A DNA stretch of 64,000 nt from Chloroflexi bacterium bin125. GTDB lineage: Bacteria; Chloroflexota; Dehalococcoidia; Bin125. This document shows, piece after piece, positions 6,029 through 53,086 of this stretch; positions within the stretch are counted from its first letter, which is position 1, and each line of letters opens with the position of its first letter. A model generated the notes under the pieces. The model had not been told where the DNA came from, made no database searches, and was given only the letters and a program-made list of their open reading frames with translations. Position numbers and translations under genes: made by a program. The DNA lies in assembly GCA_002239025.1 (NCBI GenBank), contig MPNM01000008.1:47196-111195 (forward strand), read 5' to 3'.

Positions 6029-8200
6029 TCAAATGGCCTCGGAAGGTTCCGCTTCCGTCAACCAGACCGACACCAGTGATGGATCTTGCAGCACAGTAAC
6101 CAGACGGTCTTCATCCCAGATCGGCAGGCCCAACGCTTCCGCTTTCTTGCGCTTGGATCCGGCCGCGTCGCCGGCGAACAGCGCCGTCGTGTTCTTGCTC
6201 ACCGACGAGCCAACGCCGGCTCCCAGCGACTTCAATCGGGCTTCAGCCTCTGGGCGAGTCATCTCCGCGAACCGTCCGGTAAGGACGAAGCGATTGCCTT
6301 CCAGCGGTGTTTCGACGGGCTCCTCATCAGTGCGTTGAATCTCGTCCTCGACGCCTGCCGCTTGTAGGCGATGCACCAGCGACCAGTGCTCGCCGTCCAT
6401 GGCCCAGTCGACGATGCTCTGGGCGATGATCGGACCAACGCCGTCGACGTCGGCCAACGCTTCCCTCGGAGCGAGCAAGATCGCGTCCAGCGAGCCGAAC
6501 TCCTCGGCAAGCAGCGTCGCGTTCTCTCCGCCGACATGTCGGATACCGAGTCCCACCAGGAGGTACGCCAGTCCACGCGATTTGCTTGCCTCTATCGCAC
6601 CAAGGAGGTTTTCGATTCGCTTGCCGGCCTCGTACATCTCCTCCCCGCCCCGCTTGACCTTTTGCCCCAGCGAGGGAATTCGCCCCAGTACCTCTCGCTT
6701 GCCTGGCAAGGTGTAGATGTCGGCCGCGTCGTGGACAAGCTCAAGTTGCAAGAGCAAGGCAATCTGTCGTTCACCGAGACCGCGAATGTCCATTGCACCA
6801 CGGCTGGCGAAGTGTTCGAGACTGCGTTGCAGGATCGCAGGACAGGACCGATTCGAGCAGTAGTGCATGGCGTCGTCGGCATCGCGCACTGTGTCGAACC
6901 CGCAGACAGGACAGGTGGCTGGCATCGTCCAGGGAACCGAGGATTCGGGGCGGCGCTCGAGCACCGGTCGGACGACCTGCGGGATTACCTCGCCCGCTCG
7001 TCGGATGACGACCGTGTCGCCCTCGCGGATGTCCTTGCGGTGGATATCGTCGAGATTGTGCAGCGTCGCGTTGGTTACCTGGACGCCGCCGACTCGGACG
7101 GGTCTCAAGCGGGCGTAAGGATTGATGGTGCCGGTGCGACCGACATTGACCAGGATTCGCTCGACGACCGTCGATGCCTCCTGCGGCGGGAACTTCCAGG
7201 CGATCGCCCAGCGCGGCTCGCGTCCGACGATGCCGAGGTCGGCCTGCAGTCCCAGATCATCGACCTTGACGACCACGCCGTCCATCTCAAAGGCCTGCGT
7301 GTCCCGTCGCTCGGTCCACCGTTCGCAGGCGGTCAGCGCGTTGTCAATGTCATCATGCCGCGCTGCCTCAGGCGTGGTTAGGAAGCCGAACTCAGATAGC
7401 CAACCGAGTGTCTCCCAGTGCGTGTCGGGGGTGATGGCCTCGTCGCACCAGCCGAGTTGGTATATGCCGATGTTGAGCGGTCGGGTCGCGGTTACCGAAG
7501 CATCCTTCTGCCTGACTGAGCCGGCAGCCGCGTTGCGGGGGTTGGCGTAGAGCGTGAGCGCGGCGCGACCCTCGGCGAGGCGCTCTTCGTTGGCGAGGGC
7601 GATTTCCGCGTTCATCGCGTCGAAGCCTGCCTTGGGCATGTAGACCTCGCCGCGGACCTCGAACAAGGGTGGAGGGTCGCCCTCCAGTTCGTTAGGCACA
7701 GCCTCGATCGCTCGGAGATTGGCGGTGACATCTTCGCCGGCGCGACCGTCGCCGCGTGTGGCGGCCTGGACCAGGCGGCCTCGTTCGTAGACGAGGGCAA
7801 TGGCGAGGCCGTCGATCTTGGGCTCGGTGACGAATGCCCATTCCTCGCGGTCCAACAAATCGGCGGCTCGCTGTTGCCAGCCGCGAAGTTCCTCGGCGTC
7901 AAATGCGTTGCCCAACGAGAGCATGCGTCGGCGATGCTCCACGACGGCAAACGTGCGGCCCGGCGGAGCGCCGACTGTCTGGGTGGGGCTATCGCTCGAC
8001 GCCAGTTCGGGAAAGTCCGCTTCCAGGCGTTGCAGCTCGGCGAACAGGGCGTCGAAATCGGCGTCGCTGATCTCGGGCGAATTCTGTGCGTGGTAGAGAT
8101 GGTTGTGTCGCAGGATCTCGGCGCGCAGTTGCTCGACCCGGTCGCGGGCTGTGATCTGTTCAGCGTCGCCGGAGGCCCGTGGAGTTGACATCGAGTTCAC
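6029..8200 (-). CDS. ligA: NAD-dependent DNA ligase LigA
   Basis: 723 aa; adenylation domain, OB fold, Zn finger (CPVCG), HhH and C-terminal BRCT recognisable. Confidence 0.95.
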   Translation of the reverse strand: MNSMSTPRASGDAEQITARDRVEQLRAEILRHNHLYHAQNSPEISDADFDALFAELQRLEADFPELASSDSPTQTVGAPPGRTFAVVEHRRRMLSLGNAFDAEELRGWQQRAADLLDREEWAFVTEPKIDGLAIALVYERGRLVQAATRGDGRAGEDVTANLRAIEAVPNELEGDPPPLFEVRGEVYMPKAGFDAMNAEIALANEERLAEGRAALTLYANPRNAAAGSVRQKDASVTATRPLNIGIYQLGWCDEAITPDTHWETLGWLSEFGFLTTPEAARHDDIDNALTACERWTERRDTQAFEMDGVVVKVDDLGLQADLGIVGREPRWAIAWKFPPQEASTVVERILVNVGRTGTINPYARLRPVRVGGVQVTNATLHNLDDIHRKDIREGDTVVIRRAGEVIPQVVRPVLERRPESSVPWTMPATCPVCGFDTVRDADDAMHYCSNRSCPAILQRSLEHFASRGAMDIRGLGERQIALLLQLELVHDAADIYTLPGKREVLGRIPSLGQKVKRGGEEMYEAGKRIENLLGAIEASKSRGLAYLLVGLGIRHVGGENATLLAEEFGSLDAILLAPREALADVDGVGPIIAQSIVDWAMDGEHWSLVHRLQAAGVEDEIQRTDEEPVETPLEGNRFVLTGRFAEMTRPEAEARLKSLGAGVGSSVSKNTTALFAGDAAGSKRKKAEALGLPIWDEDRLVTVLQDPSLVSVWLTEAEPSEAI

Positions 8201-8244
8201 TATAGAAAGGGAAAGCGGGCCAATCCTACTGATACGCTCAGCCC

Positions 8245-8895
8245 GTGAGCGATCCTGAGCTGGCCGACCTTGACGTAATCATCCTCGACTATGGCGCGGG
8301 TAACCTGCGCTCGGTCGTCCGCGCCGTCGAGCGTGTTGGCGCGAAGCCTGAAGTGGCGTCTGTCGCGGCTGCAATGGACGAAGCGGATGTGGTGATTCTG
8401 CCCGGCGTGGGCGCGGCTGCGGACACGATGCACAATCTGCGCGAGTTGCGCCTGATTGAGCCAATCCGCGAATACATCGCCGCCGACCGTCCGTTCCTTG
8501 GCGTCTGCATGGGACTGCAGGCGTTGATGACCGTCTCGGAAGAGGGCGGCGAGCATCCTTGCCTCGATGTACTCGAAGGCCGCGTCGTTCGTCTGCCGGA
8601 GGGCCGCAAGATTCCGCACATGGGTTGGAATCGGGTCGATCAACGGCGTCGGACGCCGCTCTTCGACGGCATTCCCGATGGCTCGCACTTCTATTTCGTC
8701 CACTCCTACTTCTGCGACATGGCGCAGCCCGAAGATGTCGTGGCGGTCGCCGACTACGGCACCGACGTCACAGCGGTCGTGGAACGCGGGAAGCTGGCGG
8801 CGACTCAGTTCCACCCGGAGAAGAGCGGCGCTTACGGTTTGCGGATCTATCGCAACTTCCTGCTCGAGCACTCCGGAAATGGAGTATCGAGATGA
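8245..8895 (+). CDS. hisH: Imidazole glycerol phosphate synthase glutaminase subunit HisH
   Basis: class I glutamine amidotransferase; VIILDYGAGNLRSV, GVCMGLQ. Confidence 0.95.
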   Translation: MSDPELADLDVIILDYGAGNLRSVVRAVERVGAKPEVASVAAAMDEADVVILPGVGAAADTMHNLRELRLIEPIREYIAADRPFLGVCMGLQALMTVSEEGGEHPCLDVLEGRVVRLPEGRKIPHMGWNRVDQRRRTPLFDGIPDGSHFYFVHSYFCDMAQPEDVVAVADYGTDVTAVVERGKLAATQFHPEKSGAYGLRIYRNFLLEHSGNGVSR

Positions 8896-16841: not shown

Positions 16842-16900
16842 GCGGGACCCCCTCAGCCTTCGGCAGCTCCCCCTGCAAGGGGGAGCGGGGAACGCGGGAC
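16842..16900. repeat. Family B palindromic repeat (CGGGNCCCCTCNGCCTTCGGCANCTCCCCC...GGGGGAG)
   Basis: GCCTTCGGC tetraloop-type hairpin plus CTCCCCCTGCAAGGGGGAG hairpin; second copy 21362-21407. Confidence 0.7.
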
Positions 16901-19324: not shown

Positions 19325-19490
19325 TCTTTGGAGACGGCTCAGGTTTCATTTTCTCCCCCCTCCGGGGGGGAGATGCCGCAGGCAGAGGGGGGCTCCTTGC
19401 CTGTCGCCCCTAATGGAAGTCACCCGCCGCCCCCCAGTCACTCCGTGACATCTCCCCCGCAAGGGGGGAGATGGGACTTTGGGAGTCATG
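19325..19490. repeat. Family A repeat, internal core only (no outer TIRs)
   Basis: TTCTCCCCCCTCCGGGGGGGAGATGCCGCAGGCAGAGGGGGG...TCCGTGACATCTCCCCCGCAAGGGGGGAG aligns with cores at 27850-28010 and 45340-45480. Confidence 0.75.
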
Positions 19491-21114: not shown

Positions 21115-21146
21115 TGCGTGTCAGACACCGGCCGCCTTCTTCGGGT

Positions 21147-21266
21147 CCCCTCTCCCTTTGGGAGAGGGTTAGGGTGAGGGCCGGAACCCGCAAACAGCGA
21201 CTCCCAACAGATTGATGTGACGGGGAACCCTCACCCCGGCCCTCTCCCAGAGGGAGAGGGGGTAAG
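21147..21266. repeat. Family C long palindromic element
   Basis: CCCCTCTCCCTTTGGGAGAGGGTTAGGGTGAGGGCCGG...CCGGGGAACCCTCACCCCGGCCCTCTCCCAGAGGGAGAGGGGGTAA; near-identical copy 52967-53086. Confidence 0.8.
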
Positions 21267-27815: not shown

Positions 27816-28050
27816 GTTCCCAAGATTTCCAGTCCCCGCTCTACGGAGACCTTTGAAAGCTCCCCTTCTCCCCCCTTGCGGGGGAGATGCCGAAGGCAGA
27901 GGGGGGTCCGCTGTTTCGGGATCCCTATCTGGCCATCAACCGCCGCCCCCCCTCTGTCACTCCGTGACATCTCCCCCCGCAAGGGGGGGAGAGGGGATTC
28001 GGGAGTTCTTCGAGGGTCTTTGTATAGCGGGGACTGGGGAATGCGGTGTC
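27816..28050. mobile_element. Family A MITE-like element, full copy with ~40-bp terminal inverted repeats
   Basis: Left end GTTCCCAAGATTTCCAGTCCCCGCTCTACGGAGACCTTTGAA, right end its reverse complement (TTCGAGGGTCTTTGTATAGCGGGGACTGGGGAATGCG); core shared with 19325-19490 and 45308-45527. Confidence 0.8.
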
Positions 28051-49654: not shown

Positions 49655-49806
49655 GGTCAGGTCAGCCTATCAGCGCAACACATTCATCAATCTTTCCATG
49701 CCGCTCTGTATTGGCTATCGCAGTTGTCGGGCATACACTCAATCAATCGAACCAACCGACCCCTCCATTCTCTCCCAACCACCAGTAACGAAAACGAGCC
49801 GCCCCC

Positions 49807-50502
49807 ATGGACCTTGAAGGGTTGCAGCAGCTCCAGGAGATCGACATCCAGCGAGACCAGGCCAAGCGCGACCTGCAGGCCGTTCTCGACCAAATCTCCG
49901 ATCCGCCATTCATCAACCAGCTCGAAGCGGAAATCGCCGCTCAGGAAGACGACGCTCGCCAGGCCGAACAAGCTGTCCGAGAAGCGAACGCCATCGTTCA
50001 GACTGCACAACGCCGTATTGAAGTGACCGACAAGCGTCTCTACTCCGGCTCGATCACCGATCACCGGACACTGGAAGAGCTCCAGCGGGACCTCTACAGC
50101 CAGCGCCAGCAACTGCCGCCCCTCTCAGAGGCACAGACACGCGCCGAGTACGAAGCTCAACTCGCGCAGGAAGCCACCACCTGGTTGCAAAACCTGAAAA
50201 CCGGTGCGCTCGATGTCTGGAATGCCCACCAGTCCCAGCTTGAGGTCGAACGCGTCGACGCACAGGAGCGCGTCGATGAGTTCTCCCGCCAGGTCGAAAT
50301 CCTGCGCGAGAAGCTGTCCCAGGATGATCTGGCAACCTACGACCAGTATCGCCGCCGCCGGCCGCGCGTCGTCTCGACCGTCGCCGGCGGAGTCTGCGCC
50401 GAGTGCCGACTCACCCTGCCGACCATCGTCATCACCCGAGCCAGGCGCGGTACTCGCACCGTCGAATGTCCATCATGTGGATGCTTGCTGCGCGTGACCT
50501 AG
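49807..50502 (+). CDS. COG1579 zinc-ribbon domain protein (coiled coil + C4 ribbon)
   Basis: Long coiled coil then CAECRLTLP...ECPSCGCLL. Confidence 0.75.
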   Translation: MDLEGLQQLQEIDIQRDQAKRDLQAVLDQISDPPFINQLEAEIAAQEDDARQAEQAVREANAIVQTAQRRIEVTDKRLYSGSITDHRTLEELQRDLYSQRQQLPPLSEAQTRAEYEAQLAQEATTWLQNLKTGALDVWNAHQSQLEVERVDAQERVDEFSRQVEILREKLSQDDLATYDQYRRRRPRVVSTVAGGVCAECRLTLPTIVITRARRGTRTVECPSCGCLLRVT

Positions 50503-50534
50503 TCCTGCCGCAGCCAGACGCATAGCATCAATCT

Positions 50535-51977
50535 GTGCGTGCCATCGGATATCTCAGTCAGCGCAGTGAACACCCGCCGCGGACCGACCACGCCGGCGAC
50601 GATCCCACGTTGGTCGTCCAGAACGCCAACTTCCTCGAGTATTGCCACGAGCACGGTTTCGAGCCCACCGCTACATTCCTCGATGCCGACACCGCGCACG
50701 ACAGCGAGCGCCCCGGACTCACCCAACTGCTGCGCCACCTGAGTGAAGAGGCGCGCGGCTTCACCTTCGTTATCACCCAGAGCTTTATCAATCTCGGCCA
50801 CGACGCCACGCATGCCGTCAGAACCGTGCTCCAACTCCGCGCTCGAGGCGTCCAACTCGTCTCTCTCGAGGACGGACCGATCGACGAGTCATCGCTGATC
50901 GATCTCTGGCGTCTACACAGCGATCCCGACCCCGATGCCAACCGCCGCAGGGAACGGTTGCAAGAGCGTGCCCGACTCGGCCAGGCCATCGGCCGTCCGC
51001 CATACGGCTACGGCGTCGGCGACGATGGCCGCTACGAGATCGACGAAGAGGAAGCGGCCGTGGTTCGGCGCATCTTCAACCTCTGTTTGCACGACGGACT
51101 CGGCATCCGCCGAATCGCGCAGCGCCTCAACGAAGAAGGCTTTCAAACTCGCCGCGGACGCAACTGGAGCATGGTCAGTATTCGCGACATGCTGCGTAAC
51201 CCCGTCTACATCGGCCGCTACGACAAGCTCGGGGTCAGCGTGCCGGGCAACCATCACGCCATTGTTTCCGAACCTGACTTCGAGGCCGTCGCGCAACAGA
51301 TGTCCCAGCGACGCACCGCGCCCGGCGTCAGTCATCCCTCCGACTTCTTACTCGCGGGACTGGTCTGGTGCGGCGAGGATCAGACACGCATGATCGGCGT
51401 GACCCGTCGTCAGCAGTGGCGCAAAGCCAGTGGCGACACTGCCGCGGCGACCTATCGCTACTACCAGTCCGAGGCACGCACCAACCAGTCGGTCGGCGGA
51501 TATCACACACGTCGTGCCGACGACCTTGAGGCCGAGGTTCTTTCGCACATCCGCGGAGAGCGGCAAGGCGGAGAGATTGCGGTGCTCAACATCGGCAGCA
51601 ACGACACCGCACTCGCCGCCGAGACCGCCGTCGCCGTCTCTACCGCCGAAGCGCGGCTCCGCGCCATCGACCGCAAGCTCAGCCAACTACTCGATGACGC
51701 ATCCGCCGGAGATCCACCGCCCGCGAGCCTGCAAGAGGCCGGAGCCGACATAATCGCCGAGTGGGAAACAGCCAGCGCCGATCTCGCCCAGATCAAAAGT
51801 CGAGCCCAGGCCCAGGAACGAGAAGCCGACCGCCGCCGCCGCAGAGATCAGCGTCTGCAACGAGTTCGAGAACACTGGGACTCCCTCGCATTCCCTCAAC
51901 AACGAGACCTGATCGAACACCTCGTCGACCGAGTCATCGTCTTCGACAACTCCGTCACCACCCAGCTCAAGGCCTAA
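50535..51977 (+). CDS. Large serine recombinase-like protein (resolvase N-domain + recombinase domain + degenerate Zn-ribbon/coiled coil)
   Basis: MRAIGYLSQRS..., DSERPGLTQLL, GRPPYGYGVGDDGRYEIDEEEAAVVRRIF, LNEEGFQTRRGRNWSMVSIRDMLRNPVYIG; several canonical catalytic residues appear substituted. Confidence 0.75.
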   Translation: MRAIGYLSQRSEHPPRTDHAGDDPTLVVQNANFLEYCHEHGFEPTATFLDADTAHDSERPGLTQLLRHLSEEARGFTFVITQSFINLGHDATHAVRTVLQLRARGVQLVSLEDGPIDESSLIDLWRLHSDPDPDANRRRERLQERARLGQAIGRPPYGYGVGDDGRYEIDEEEAAVVRRIFNLCLHDGLGIRRIAQRLNEEGFQTRRGRNWSMVSIRDMLRNPVYIGRYDKLGVSVPGNHHAIVSEPDFEAVAQQMSQRRTAPGVSHPSDFLLAGLVWCGEDQTRMIGVTRRQQWRKASGDTAAATYRYYQSEARTNQSVGGYHTRRADDLEAEVLSHIRGERQGGEIAVLNIGSNDTALAAETAVAVSTAEARLRAIDRKLSQLLDDASAGDPPPASLQEAGADIIAEWETASADLAQIKSRAQAQEREADRRRRRDQRLQRVREHWDSLAFPQQRDLIEHLVDRVIVFDNSVTTQLKA

Positions 51978-51984
51978 CCGCCCT

Positions 51985-52096
51985 CGCTTCCTCCGCTTCC
52001 CCCCTTGCGGGGGAAGCTGCCGAAGGCTGAAGGGGGGTTCCCGGCTTCAAGCGCAAACGTCCGTTCTGTCCTCTGCGAGATTCCCTCGGCAAGCGC
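51985..52096. repeat. Composite repeat: family A left-arm fragment plus degenerate family D hairpin
   Basis: CTTCCCCCCTTGCGGGGGAAGCTGCCGAAGGCTGAAGGGGGGTTCC then CGAGATTCCCTCGGCAAGCGCGCGAATGACG. Confidence 0.6.
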
Positions 52097-52135: not shown

Positions 52136-52534
52136 ATGCACCTCATCGCCTACGCCGACGGCGCGTCTCGTGGCAATCCCGGTCCTGCCGCTTATGGCGC
52201 AGTCCTCTGCTCCCCCGACGGCCAGGAACTCGACGCCTGGGGCAATCCCATCGGACGAGCCACAAACAACGTCGCCGAATACCAGGGCGCAATTGCCGCC
52301 GTCGAAGCAGCGCTCGAAATGGGCGCAACAAACCTCGAGCTGCGCCTGGATTCCGAACTCATCGTGCGACAACTCGAGGGCCGCTATCGAGTCAAGAACA
52401 AGCAACTCAAACCGCTCTTCGAGCAACTCAAAGCCCTGATCGACCAACTCGACACCTTCCAACCCACACACGTCCGACGCCACCTCAATCAACGAGCCGA
52501 CGCGATGGCCAACGAGGCGCTGGATCGCCGTTAA
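52136..52534 (+). CDS. rnhA: Ribonuclease HI-like protein
   Basis: MHLIAYADGASRGNPGPAAYGAV...NNVAEYQG...HVRRHLNQRADAMAN (DEDD RNase H fold). Confidence 0.85.
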   Translation: MHLIAYADGASRGNPGPAAYGAVLCSPDGQELDAWGNPIGRATNNVAEYQGAIAAVEAALEMGATNLELRLDSELIVRQLEGRYRVKNKQLKPLFEQLKALIDQLDTFQPTHVRRHLNQRADAMANEALDRR

Positions 52535-52552
52535 CCGCGCTAAAGTAAACCT

Positions 52553-52950
52553 CGCCAGGCCGCCGGGCGGCCGCGGCGCACGTCTCGTACGCGCGTCGAG
52601 GAAAGTCCGGGCTCCGCGGGACAGGGCGCTGGGTAACTCCCAGGCAGGGTGACTTGACGGATAGTGCACAGAAACACACCGCCTACCCGGTCGACCACGC
52701 TCTTTCTGTGGCGACCGGCGGTAAGGGTGAGATGGTGCGGTAAGAGCGCACCAGCGGTCGGGTGACCGGCCGGCTGAGCAAACCCCGCCCGGAGCAAGAC
52801 CAAATAGGGAGACTGAGGCTTGTCCCGGGCCGTCTCCGGGTAGGTCGCTCGAGGCGGCGGGTAACCGTCGTCCCAGATGGATGGTCGCCAACCGATGCCC
52901 CGAGCAATCGGAGCATCGCGAACAGAACCCGGCTTACAGGCGGCCTGGCA
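52553..52950 (+). ncRNA. rnpB: RNase P RNA (bacterial type A)
   Basis: GAGGAAAGTCCGGGCTCC (P4), GGGTAACTCCCAGGC, AGGGTGA...GGTGCGGTAAGAGCGCACCAG, ACAGAACCCGGCTTA near the 3' end; P1 pairing GCCAGGCCGCC/GGCGGCCTGGC. Confidence 0.9.
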
Positions 52951-52966
52951 AAACGCCTACCTCCGA

Positions 52967-53086
52967 TCCCCTCTCCCCGTGGGAGAGGGTTAGGGTGAGG
53001 GCTGGGCCTGGACAAAGAACGATTCCCACGAGACAGATAGGCCGGGGAACCCTCACCCCAGCCCTCTCCCAGAGGGAGAGGGGGTA
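52967..53086. repeat. Family C long palindromic element (copy 2)
   Basis: CCCCTCTCCCCGTGGGAGAGGGTTAGGGTGAGGGCTGG...CCGGGGAACCCTCACCCCAGCCCTCTCCCAGAGGGAGAGGGGGTAA. Confidence 0.8.

Follow-up and report, generated by a model that had tools for sequence, protein, structure and literature searches.

The question raised by this locus is why a gene with the domain architecture of a phage integrase is surrounded by housekeeping genes, and what its product does there. In the 64,000-nt stretch of DNA analysed here (the window), the gene occupies positions 50535–51977 of the plus strand, starts with a GTG located four codons past an in-frame TAG and encodes a protein of 480 aa. The neighbours of the locus are ftsK, RNase J, tatAC, acpP, nusB, fabD, rpmF, yceD, murE and birA, which agrees with the original prediction that neither phage nor ICE cargo is adjacent. 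The architecture of a large serine recombinase, also recognised in that prediction, was confirmed by Pfam, PHROG, AF2 and Foldseek.

Four modules can be distinguished, all encoded on the plus strand. The N-terminal resolvase-fold domain (residues 1–135; 50535–50939) is matched by Pfam Resolvase (PF00239, 1e-8, 35.8 bits at a cut-off of 23.3); since this match spans profile positions 13–106 only, the nucleophile segment is skipped. It is followed by the Recombinase domain, or RD (residues 136–270; 50940–51344), for which PF07508 scored 79.9 bits (1.8e-22, cut-off 21.1) and which is rich in invariant residues, such as GRPPYGY and WSM..RD.L.N..Y.G.Y. The zinc-ribbon domain (residues 271–345; 51345–51569) is matched by Zn_ribbon_recom (PF13408, 7.7e-7, 29.8 bits), and residues 346–480 with the stop codon (51570–51977) encode a coiled-coil motif and a C-terminal beta tail. 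This last module was recognised from the AF2 model, in which residues 357–390 and 397–450 form helices and 464–478 strands, and from an HMM alignment with the C-terminus of the A118 integrase, including the W..L.F....L...v.rv.V tail. The AF2 model (mean pLDDT 82.7) has the SPbeta, Bxb1, PhiC31 and A118 integrases as its top Foldseek matches over the whole length (E from 2e-21 to 1e-14), and together they confirm the resolvase-type N-terminal fold; the PHROG integrase phrog_95 matches residues 138–476 with 220 bits. The protein therefore has the N-terminal fold, the RD, the coiled-coil motif inserted in the zinc ribbon and the C-terminal tail of a large serine recombinase, but not the Ser nucleophile, the Arg/Asp set, the four-Cys zinc ribbon or the association with a mobile element.

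Specifically, the N-terminal domain lacks R8, S10, D67, R68 and R71. Relative to gamma-delta resolvase, the replacements are R8->S, S10->R, D67->I, R68->N and R71->H, and the position of the nucleophilic Ser holds Arg while that of R8 holds Ser (Y6-L-S-Q-R10). The two motifs that had drawn attention to this gene, GYLSQRSEH in the nucleophile region (G5–H13) and FINLGHD in the D-R-L-x-R region (F84–D90), were read from the translation exactly as claimed. A profile alignment with the SPbeta integrase reveals the same loss (GYLRRSRQD opposite GYlseakee, RLSR opposite arLge), and the assertion that the catalytic motifs are degenerate is borne out by both alignments, in which the Ser and the Arg/Asp set are missing.

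As far as the sequences can tell, this loss is family-wide and is not a private decay of the window gene. The complete set of R8, S10, D67, R68 and R71 was found in 0/181 unique sequences of the window's subfamily, 158 of which keep one or none of the five residues, with differing residues or gaps at the Ser position. A distant subfamily (63 unique sequences) keeps 0–2 of the five, with the full set again in 0/63, while five true integrases placed in its alignment have 5/5; true integrases in this type of alignment read R-S-D-R-R. Among 108 full-length cluster representatives obtained in an exhaustive profile search, the family members keep 0–3 catalytic residues; six lower-scoring representatives, the first of them at 212 bits, have all five, and two more low-scoring ones with four residues resemble true integrases. 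A few members retain more of the set, namely those at the loci L047, L064, L066 and L075, in which R8 and S10 are kept (YFRES), and L082, which keeps R8, D67, R68 and R71. In the zinc ribbon of the window protein, three of the four Cys ligands are gone and C279 is left (ligand pattern CDSG). Single-Cys ribbons occur in 117/181 sequences of the window's subfamily and four-Cys ribbons (CCCC) in 63/181, and in the distant subfamily four Cys are present in 63/63.

One can suggest that the protein nevertheless remains an active recombinase which uses a non-canonical active site, for example with another Ser, Thr or Tyr, and performs an inversion or excision programmed by the host. The modules for DNA binding and synapsis are all present, Y6 is invariant, and some deep members retain Y-F-R-E-S/T. 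However, Y6 is the only conserved candidate for a nucleophile, and in canonical enzymes it is conserved without being the nucleophile. The Arg residues for phosphoryl transfer are missing family-wide, and the former nucleophile loop (residues 13–21) is a linker of variable length and low confidence (pLDDT < 50). Family-specific invariant residues do occur in the N-domain (C37, Q29, D50, Q64, R96, and W125), with no obvious catalytic constellation of a new active site among them. In addition, the gene order around the locus is static across 80 genomes (the best 80 of 266 matches), and att-type inverted or direct repeats are absent from it: the search for attL/attR-like repeats that had been proposed with the original prediction returned, over 49.6–53.3 kb, short imperfect repeats at chance level, none of which brackets the gene. 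We consider continued recombinase activity very improbable.

The distribution of the gene does not agree with the original view of a lone insertion in this genome. In the GTDB species-genome collection, 266 matches to the protein were confirmed by tblastn, the best 80 of which each come from a different record. Orthologues at the same locus in all relatives had been named beforehand as the observation that would speak against the insertion, and this is what the synteny comparison revealed, since a full-length orthologue is located there in 80/80 species-level genomes (best 80 of 266), down to 37% identity. Hundreds of lineages carry the frame intact and at full length, at identities as low as about 30%. 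The identities of fabD, rpmF, yceD, cog1579, rnhA and murE rise and fall with that of the dead recombinase (r = 0.92–0.98), no anomaly of GC or composition was detected, and a search of 2.9 million viral contigs yielded no relatives. The family is a vertically inherited core chromosomal gene of Dehalococcoidia-type Chloroflexota, and any insertion into the COG1579/RNase HI pair would have to be very ancient.

The dN/dS values are 0.07–0.17 for the gene, the N-terminal domain included, and 0.06–0.12 for the RD, indicating purifying selection as strong as on the housekeeping neighbours; the zinc-ribbon domain is the most constrained part (0–0.06) despite its lost ligands. The degenerate catalytic motifs, the loss of zinc ligands and the dispersed repeat in the downstream spacer could be accounted for if the gene were the decaying remnant of an integrase that had arrived recently with a prophage or ICE since lost. 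Such a pseudogene would hardly keep a full-length frame in hundreds of lineages at these dN/dS values, with conserved synteny, no viral relatives and the strongest constraint on a zinc-less ribbon; this reading, to which we assign a negligible probability, was ruled out by the conservation data. The original wording, “inactivated or repurposed”, can be narrowed to repurposed rather than simply active, given the family-wide residue loss and the purifying selection. Judged on sequence grounds, the protein is very probably dead as a recombinase and selected for a non-recombinase role. A role in defence finds no counterpart in the PADLOC models, in which no family matched the protein at E <= 0.01.

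The closest companion of the dead recombinase is the gene directly upstream (49807–50502, plus strand), which profile matches assign to the CT398/HP0958/MSMEG_4306 family (COG1579, DUF164) and whose product combines an N-terminal coiled-coil hairpin with a C-terminal C4 zinc ribbon of the CxxC...CxxC type. The family profile matched CT398 (4ILO, 3e-23), MSMEG_4306 (5Y05, 6e-22) and HP0958 (3NA7, 2e-16) in PDB over the full length. The window protein itself is below the threshold for Zn_ribbon_9 (23 vs 29.1), and its orthologues exceed the cut-offs for both CT398_CC and Zn_ribbon_9; C197, C200, C221 and C224 are invariant in the family. The dead recombinase is directly preceded by a COG1579 gene in 145/145 informative loci, comprising 80 loci (78 recognised by tblastn and 2 by Pfam), 3 distant genome contexts and 62 metagenome loci. 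In the three distant contexts this adjacency is kept (3/3) though the other neighbours differ. The pair is also found in the cultivable Tepidiforma (L071/L077). Most loci have a gap of -1 to 12 nt between the two genes, and stop and start codons often overlap; in the deeper clades the gap is -1 to 4 nt, and TAATG and TGATG are examples of the overlaps. In the window, the two genes are separated by a 32-nt spacer (50503–50534, plus strand) that carries CATAGCATC right before the GTG start and is conserved in the close clade; a CATAGCAT box might allow the recombinase-like gene to be transcribed without a leader. Two COG1579 loci, L084 and L085, do not contain the recombinase-like gene and have no rnpB close by, a number (n=2) too small to define an “empty site”.

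The COG1579 family is widespread and is essential in M. tuberculosis. Its member MSMEG_4306 co-purifies with the beta subunit of RNA polymerase and with DNA (PMC7092591), and binding to the beta' subunit has been predicted for ML1638 and CT398 (bioRxiv 10.64898/2026.07.15.738315). These RNA polymerase contacts come from prediction and a cross-linking pull-down, in another phylum. The invariable gene pairing suggests that the dead recombinase probably works in physical contact with the COG1579 protein.

On the other side, the dead recombinase is followed in the window by an RNase HI gene (52136–52534, plus strand), matched by Pfam RVT_3 and RNase_H (PF00075 45 bits, PF13456 77.7 bits). In NCBIfam, the profile that fits it best describes the RNase H domain of bifunctional RNase H/acid phosphatase proteins (PRK07238), and the D-E-D-D set of RNase H can be read off its translation as D8, E48, D72 and D122, the presumed catalytic residues. 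An RNase HI gene comes next after the dead recombinase in 68/77 loci, and in L064, L066, L075 and L079 the same position is occupied by RNase HIII (TIGR00716, 190 bits, above the cut-off). In the distant subfamily the gene order is COG1579, recombinase, rnpB, without RNase H, and the RNase H link may therefore belong to COG1579 and not to the dead recombinase. The original prediction had pointed to a linkage of COG1579 and RNase HI in other bacteria, and such a linkage exists in M. tuberculosis, where both are co-operonic in Rv2231c-Rv2230c-Rv2229c-Rv2228c (PMC7466739). The Rv2229c-Rv2228c operon, MSMEG_4306 and ML1638 represent the same COG1579 family, and the RNase HI domain is of the same type as in the window; unlike the window, the mycobacterial operon has NIF3 upstream and contains no recombinase-like gene.

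The next gene in the window is rnpB, encoding RNase P RNA of bacterial type A (52555–52952, plus strand; Rfam RF00010, 281.7 bits). This downstream, same-strand position recurs in 72/83 genome loci; in the distant subfamily, 51/60 metagenome loci have rnpB 11–240 nt past the recombinase stop codon, most of them with 30–90 nt between the stop and the rnpB 5' end; an adjacent rnpB is missing in about 10–15% of loci. It could be proposed on this basis that the former integrase acts with COG1579 at the RNA level: it would bind RNase P RNA, mature or as a precursor, and serve the RNase P ribonucleoprotein as an additional subunit, a chaperone or a modulator. The rnpB adjacency in both subfamilies (51/60 and 72/83 loci), its persistence where all other neighbours differ and the lack of a nearby rnpB at the two COG1579 loci without the recombinase (n=2) are in line with this proposal. 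A protein gene kept beside its RNA partner is known from smpB-ssrA, and additional RNase P modulators have a precedent in RnpM (PMC10853771). Nevertheless, recombinase and zinc-ribbon domains are known only as binders of duplex DNA, Pfam and NCBIfam-type profile searches detected no RNA-binding domain in the protein, and the rnpB genes are ordinary type A, matching the full Rfam model at 230–310 bits. Together with the 10–15% of loci that lack an adjacent rnpB, this makes an RNA-level factor unlikely.

The arrangement of promoters is also relevant here. A -10-like box, TAAAGT (52541–52546, plus strand), is located 8 nt before the rnpB 5' end, and the 17 loci examined have a TAnnnT at that distance. 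An alignment of 45 + 69 loci leaves this box as the sole conserved feature upstream of rnpB, with no further conserved or dyad-symmetric motif; in the distant subfamily the rnpB promoters are of the -10/extended -10 type and have no conserved -35. The conserved -10 box indicates that rnpB has its own promoter, and its adjacency could thus be inherited synteny rather than function. The assumption that rnpB is necessarily co-transcribed with the operon was dropped for the same reason; read-through from the operon may occur, and no plus-strand terminator was found. Upstream of the operon, the block TTGGCT-17 nt-TACACT (49711–49739, plus strand) is the only strongly conserved non-coding block of the yceD/cog1579 spacer among 22 relatives, and in deeper clades TTGCAA-17-TATAAT occupies the same spot. 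This promoter-like block was recognised by conservation and falls below the threshold of a strict sigma-70 consensus scan, which gave zero matches. Operator- or att-like motifs were not found in the yceD/cog1579 spacer, whose conserved blocks are a promoter and an RBS only.

Integrase genes usually adjoin an att site, and one can imagine that the dead integrase, left over from a decayed integrative element, still occupies a relic of such a site beside its gene, at the operon or rnpB promoter, acting as a locus-specific transcription factor for rnpB and/or its own operon while COG1579 contacts RNA polymerase. The short distance of 30–90 nt between the stop codon and the rnpB 5' end in most distant-subfamily loci and the predicted RNA polymerase binding of a COG1579 homologue would fit this idea, and the lack of a conserved -35 at the rnpB promoters leaves room for an activator. 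However, the 45 + 69 loci have no motif beyond the -10 box upstream of rnpB, none is present at the operon promoter, and at the loci of the window's subfamily an entire RNase H gene lies between the recombinase and rnpB. We regard a factor of this kind as improbable. It is a specific version of the explanation that we prefer.

According to the preferred explanation, to which we give a probability of roughly 0.55, the protein is a large serine recombinase that was domesticated long ago, is catalytically dead and serves as a non-cutting, nucleic-acid-binding partner of the COG1579 protein and is tied to rnpB/RNase H. It would no longer cut or rejoin DNA, and its recombinase and zinc-ribbon domains would hold nucleic acid, most likely duplex DNA, while the coiled coil and/or the N-terminal domain would bind the COG1579 partner. 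Since this partner is RNA-polymerase-associated in other phyla, the two proteins may form a non-catalytic adaptor between DNA and RNA polymerase. The adaptor would act on transcription or on the handling of RNA:DNA hybrids at rnpB or in connection with it, and RNase H would supply the enzymatic activity at those loci that have it. The strong conservation of the DNA-binding domains leads one to expect a conserved target, and none was found at the operon promoter or upstream of rnpB. A connection of the function with rnpB, RNase P RNA or RNA:DNA hybrids is put forward tentatively, at slightly less than even chances. Less likely than not, though conceivable, is a new two-protein module for the rnpB gene or its RNA, in which the former integrase would provide nucleic-acid recognition to the CT398-like protein as a coiled-coil factor bound to RNA polymerase, with RNase H-dependent hybrid removal added in one subfamily. 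All functional statements about the dead recombinase are drawn from its context.

Serine integrases have been studied almost solely as DNA cutters of mobile elements and as tools for genome engineering. The integrases of A118 (LI Int), SPbeta (SprA), Bxb1 and PhiC31 have the same four-module architecture and fold as the window protein. In contrast to such phage and ICE integrases, the window protein has neither the Ser nucleophile and R8/D67/R68/R71 nor an att site or mobile cargo, and its family occupies a single conserved chromosomal locus, is inherited vertically and is absent from viral contigs. XisF, SpoIVCA, SprA-type developmental excisionases and Ccr are likewise integrase-family proteins kept by the host, XisF and CcrA/B/C being the closest by NCBIfam similarity, with scores that stay far from the cut-offs (XisF 68.8 vs 375, CcrC 59.2 vs 900, CcrB 54.5 vs 900, CcrA 45.2 vs 700). 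These enzymes keep the catalytic Ser and excise a defined element, whereas the window protein has no catalytic residues. To our knowledge, including the literature searched, all host-domesticated serine integrases are still active enzymes. No paper describing a dead or exapted serine recombinase family was found in the open-access literature, and the available portion of a 2022 review on the exaptation of prokaryotic mobile elements presents serine recombinases as catalytically active uses only (PMC8987985).

For other enzyme classes, the reuse of nuclease-dead mobile-element proteins as DNA-binding regulators is known, for example, TnpB-derived TldR and domesticated transposases. Derivatives of the TldR type combine catalytic loss with retained recognition modules, purifying selection and a fixed host context, as the window family does; the window protein differs from them in belonging to another enzyme superfamily and in having no guide RNA. 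The family has kept the DNA-binding and synapsis modules under strong selection and has dropped the chemistry. If the two-protein module exists, it would provide the first demonstrated case of a large serine recombinase that lost catalysis and was exapted for a core housekeeping role, and a functional handle on the COG1579 family would be obtained. The COG1579 pairing and the tie to rnpB/RNase H provide a testable lead on the role of COG1579 and on the possible existence, in these bacteria, of factors dedicated to RNase P RNA expression or to R-loop handling. The host class is large and environmentally dominant and includes marine and sponge-associated Chloroflexota. Genes of this family are annotated as “recombinase family protein” and would mislead the mining of genomes for prophages, ICEs or integrases.

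A minor element of the locus is a REP-like palindromic dispersed repeat of about 38 nt (51998–52036, no strand assigned), overlapped by the inverted repeat I9 (51987–52025) and not part of the system. It corresponds to the “MITE fragment” of the original prediction, which was correct in that the dispersed repeat is real but wrong in connecting it with the recombinase, since among the loci searched it occurs in this spacer only in L004, a near-identical relative. The spacer between the recombinase and RNase H varies among relatives from about 2 to about 1750 nt, and other copies of the palindrome are located in the window at 16848–16883, 27869–27906 and 19453–19469.

The recombinase-like gene (50535–51977, plus strand) encodes a protein of 480 aa, and its GTG start lies four codons past an in-frame TAG. 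The product matches the Pfam Recombinase (1.8e-22) and Zn_ribbon_recom (7.7e-7) profiles; the Resolvase match is weaker (1e-8) and starts at profile position 13, past the nucleophile segment. Residues 138–476 match a PHROGs integrase family at 220 bits. An AlphaFold2 model built with 31 homologues has a mean pLDDT of 82.7, and its closest structures in Foldseek over the whole length are the large serine integrases of SPbeta, Bxb1, PhiC31, and A118 (E 2e-21 to 1e-14). By fold and domain order, the protein is a large serine recombinase homologue. Family members are publicly annotated as “recombinase family protein” or “hypothetical protein”, and no PADLOC defence model matched the window protein.

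The original prediction of degenerate catalytic motifs was borne out. Its readings GYLSQRSEH (residues 5–13) and FINLGHD (residues 84–90) are correct, and in the alignment to gamma-delta resolvase, R8, S10, D67, R68, and R71 are replaced by S, R, I, N, and H. The reference sequence and the roles of these five residues are those of established knowledge. In the profile alignment, GYLRRSRQD and RLSR of the SPbeta integrase are opposed to GYlseakee and arLge of the family, and the former nucleophile loop is a linker of variable length modelled with low confidence. None of the 181 unique sequences of the window’s subfamily has all five catalytic residues: 84 keep none, 74 one, 20 two, two three, and one four, the last (locus L082) with D replacing S10. 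A few deep members retain Y-F-R-E-S/T yet are devoid of D67, R68, and R71. We consider non-canonical catalysis by the recombinase-like protein very improbable.

The same picture emerged when 1.84 billion cluster representatives were searched exhaustively with a profile, with 961 hits at E <= 1e-30. Among the 108 full-length sequences scored from the top 150 of these hits, family members keep 0–3 of the five residues. All five are present in six representatives, the first of them at 212 bits, which are a positive control for the alignment; two more low-scoring ones, resembling true integrases, have four. The dead proteins form a single connected similarity cluster of 94 representatives, apart from the active ones. 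In the distant subfamily (about 440–452 aa; 24–38% identity among the diverse representatives aligned), 63 unique sequences have 0–2 of the residues, and five true integrases aligned along with them have 5/5. Clustered at 90% identity, this subfamily comprises no fewer than 1200 clusters, the named ones being again Chloroflexi or Dehalococcoidia. Judged by these residues, the catalytic loss is family-wide, the distant subfamily being equally dead.

The gene had also been supposed to be a lone insertion, which the synteny comparison contradicts: the order fabD-rpmF-yceD (minus strand), cog1579, recombinase-like gene, rnhA, murE is kept in 80 related loci. A protein search returned an unbroken run of full-length homologues from 100% to 38% identity, and scanning one genome per GTDB species gave 266 confirmed matches, the best 80 of which are nearly all labelled as Dehalococcoidia or Chloroflexota MAGs; two of them are Tepidiforma assemblies, and many are closed chromosomes. 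The genomes used are mostly MAGs, many of them closed long-read chromosomes. Identity values for the recombinase-like protein and for the neighbouring genes are correlated (r = 0.92–0.98), which is a signature of vertical inheritance. Its dN/dS (Nei–Gojobori, nine relatives) is 0.07–0.17, in the same range as for cog1579, rnhA, yceD, and murE, although dS is close to saturation in the more distant pairs. Every domain is constrained, and the DNA-binding and coiled-coil modules are under strong selection. The homologue series, conserved synteny, identity correlation, and low dN/dS rule out that the gene is a pseudogene in decay or was inserted recently; the view of it as a decaying remnant has next to no probability. 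The surroundings in the window are housekeeping genes (ftsK, RNase J, UDG, tatCA, acpP, nusB, fabD, rpmF, yceD, murE, an aminotransferase gene, and birA), base composition at the locus shows no anomaly, and no relatives of the family were found among 2.9 million viral contigs.

The zinc ribbon (51345–51569; ligand positions 279, 282, 312, and 321) has lost three of its four cysteines in the window protein. All four ligands are present in 63/181 sequences of the window’s subfamily and in 63/63 of the distant one; in the former, 117 sequences, a large subclade in which the three ligands were lost jointly, keep only the first, and one keeps none. The cysteine-less ribbon has the lowest dN/dS of any domain (0–0.06), and in the window’s subclade it evidently functions without zinc. 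Cys37 (50643–50645), within the F..YC motif of N-domain helix A, is invariant in both dead subfamilies and has no counterpart in the gamma-delta resolvase reference sequence.

The full integrase scaffold is kept without its chemistry. In contrast to large serine recombinases, the window protein lacks the defining catalytic features, its clade lacks the zinc ligands, and the dead family lacks an association with mobile elements; for these reasons, the protein ought not to be classed among the recombinases. We consider it dead and exapted, with a probability of about 0.9.

The gene upstream (cog1579; 49807–50502, plus strand) is a member of COG1579, the CT398/HP0958/MSMEG_4306 family. In the Pfam search, the window protein by itself stays below the threshold, while its orthologues exceed the CT398_CC and Zn_ribbon_9 cut-offs, and the family profile matches three solved structures (3e-23, 6e-22, and 2e-16). 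By tblastn, this gene directly precedes the dead recombinase in 78/80 genome loci; Pfam places it there in the remaining two. It has the same position in three distant contexts with otherwise different neighbours and in 62/62 metagenome loci with enough sequence, which gives 145/145 loci. “Empty-site” comparison, with COG1579 loci devoid of the recombinase-like gene, covered two loci. In the deep clades, the two genes are -1 to 4 nt apart, with stop/start overlaps such as TAATG and TGATG; in the distant subfamily, the gap is mostly 0–12 nt. The pairing is obligate-looking and translationally coupled, and a physical partnership of the two proteins is rather probable. In the window’s clade, the gap is 32 nt with a conserved CATAGCATC box; the CATAGCAT box (50520–50537), 6 nt before the GTG start and conserved in the close clade only, resembles a -10 element and could yield a leaderless transcript of the recombinase-like gene.

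HP0958 and CT398 are linked to sigma-54 and to secretion or flagella. MSMEG_4306/Rv2229c represents the family in mycobacteria, and some screens in M. tuberculosis found Rv2229c to be essential (PMC5947703); MSMEG_4306 was recovered in a pull-down of RNA polymerase beta and is DNA-associated after cross-linking (PMC7092591). For ML1638 and CT398, binding to RNA polymerase beta' is predicted, in which the coiled coil would extend to the sigma site (bioRxiv 10.64898/2026.07.15.738315, 2026 preprint). The M. tuberculosis operon that contains Rv2229c also includes Rv2228c, for RNase HI/CobC, and Rv2230c, for NIF3 (PMC7466739). COG1579 is the top co-occurring COG of NIF3 operons, in which sigma-70 ranks third, primase fourth, and COG0328 within the top 20 (PMC8469502). 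No link between COG1579 and rnpB was found in open-access papers.

Downstream, rnhA (52136–52534, plus strand) is followed by rnpB (52555–52952, plus strand; Rfam, 281.7 bits). The rnpB link is tight: in 72/83 genome loci, the gene lies downstream of the recombinase-like gene, in the same orientation and no more than 3.5 kb away, and in 51/60 loci of the distant subfamily it begins 11–240 nt past the recombinase-like stop. The RNase H link is subfamily-specific, an RNase HI gene intervening in 68/77 loci of the window’s subfamily. Four loci (L064, L066, L075, and L079) have in this position, at about 7410–8390 in each, a gene for RNase HIII of about 313 aa (TIGR00716, 190.5 bits vs. the cut-off of 161.2), which we read as a non-orthologous displacement preserving RNA:DNA-hybrid cleavage at that operon position. 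These four genomes are among the few in which the N-terminus of the dead recombinase retains Y-F-R-E-S/T. In the Tepidiforma loci (L071, 7452–8318; L077, 7453–8325), the next gene encodes a 290-aa protein without a Pfam or NCBIfam match, and there is no adjacent RNase H gene or rnpB. In one distant genome (L089, 6841–11078), a tRNA gene comes after rnpB, together with a fragment of a tyrosine integrase and two genes for DDE transposases, and the region adjoining the conserved triad resembles an integration hotspot.

Across about 114 loci, rnpB has its own -10 box, often TG-extended, 7–10 nt before the mature 5' end (52541–52546 in the window); beyond it, with the frequent TG, nothing upstream is conserved, including a -35. 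The absence of a conserved upstream motif weakens the explanation that the protein is a transcription factor for rnpB or the operon acting at a relic att site, which is unlikely. An RNA-level role, with the dead recombinase as a partner of the RNase P RNA whose gene so often follows, is rather unlikely. We tentatively suggest that the function of the exapted protein concerns rnpB or RNA:DNA hybrids. All functional statements are based on sequence, predicted structure, and gene context. The protein may bind nucleic acid without cutting, via its recombinase and zinc-ribbon domains, in a complex with the COG1579 protein, which would contact RNA polymerase; this module may act on transcription or on RNA:DNA-hybrid handling connected with rnpB.

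We rate the family as an undescribed, widespread pseudo-enzyme branch of large serine recombinases, and its three-part context (CT398-like gene, dead integrase, and rnpB) as fixed. No description of a catalytically dead or exapted serine recombinase was found in the open-access literature, and the available sections of a 2022 review of mobile-element exaptation present serine recombinases in active uses only (PMC8987985). Dead mobile-element enzymes reused as binding proteins are the closest functional analogues, conceptually only. A dead integrase as a core gene of a bacterial class is unexpected to a recombination specialist, and the family offers a testable lead on COG1579.

The spacer after the recombinase-like gene is a hotspot, which in close relatives can be as short as about 2 nt or as long as about 1750 nt; in the window it contains a short REP-like palindromic dispersed repeat (51998–52036), with copies at 16848–16883 (minus strand), 27869–27906, and 19453–19469. 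Between rnpB and murE (52968–53083) there is a MITE-like element, the terminal inverted repeats of which (CCCCTCTCCCCGTGGGAGAGGGTTAGGGTGAGGG) are 34 nt long; it has a second copy at 21146–21265 and related copies in five relatives’ loci (L010, L015, L016, L017, and L086). Downstream of birA, a Big_5/SWM_repeat surface-protein gene (>2199 aa) extends on the minus strand from about 57.3 kb to at least 62 kb (16792–21443 in the relative’s locus L001).
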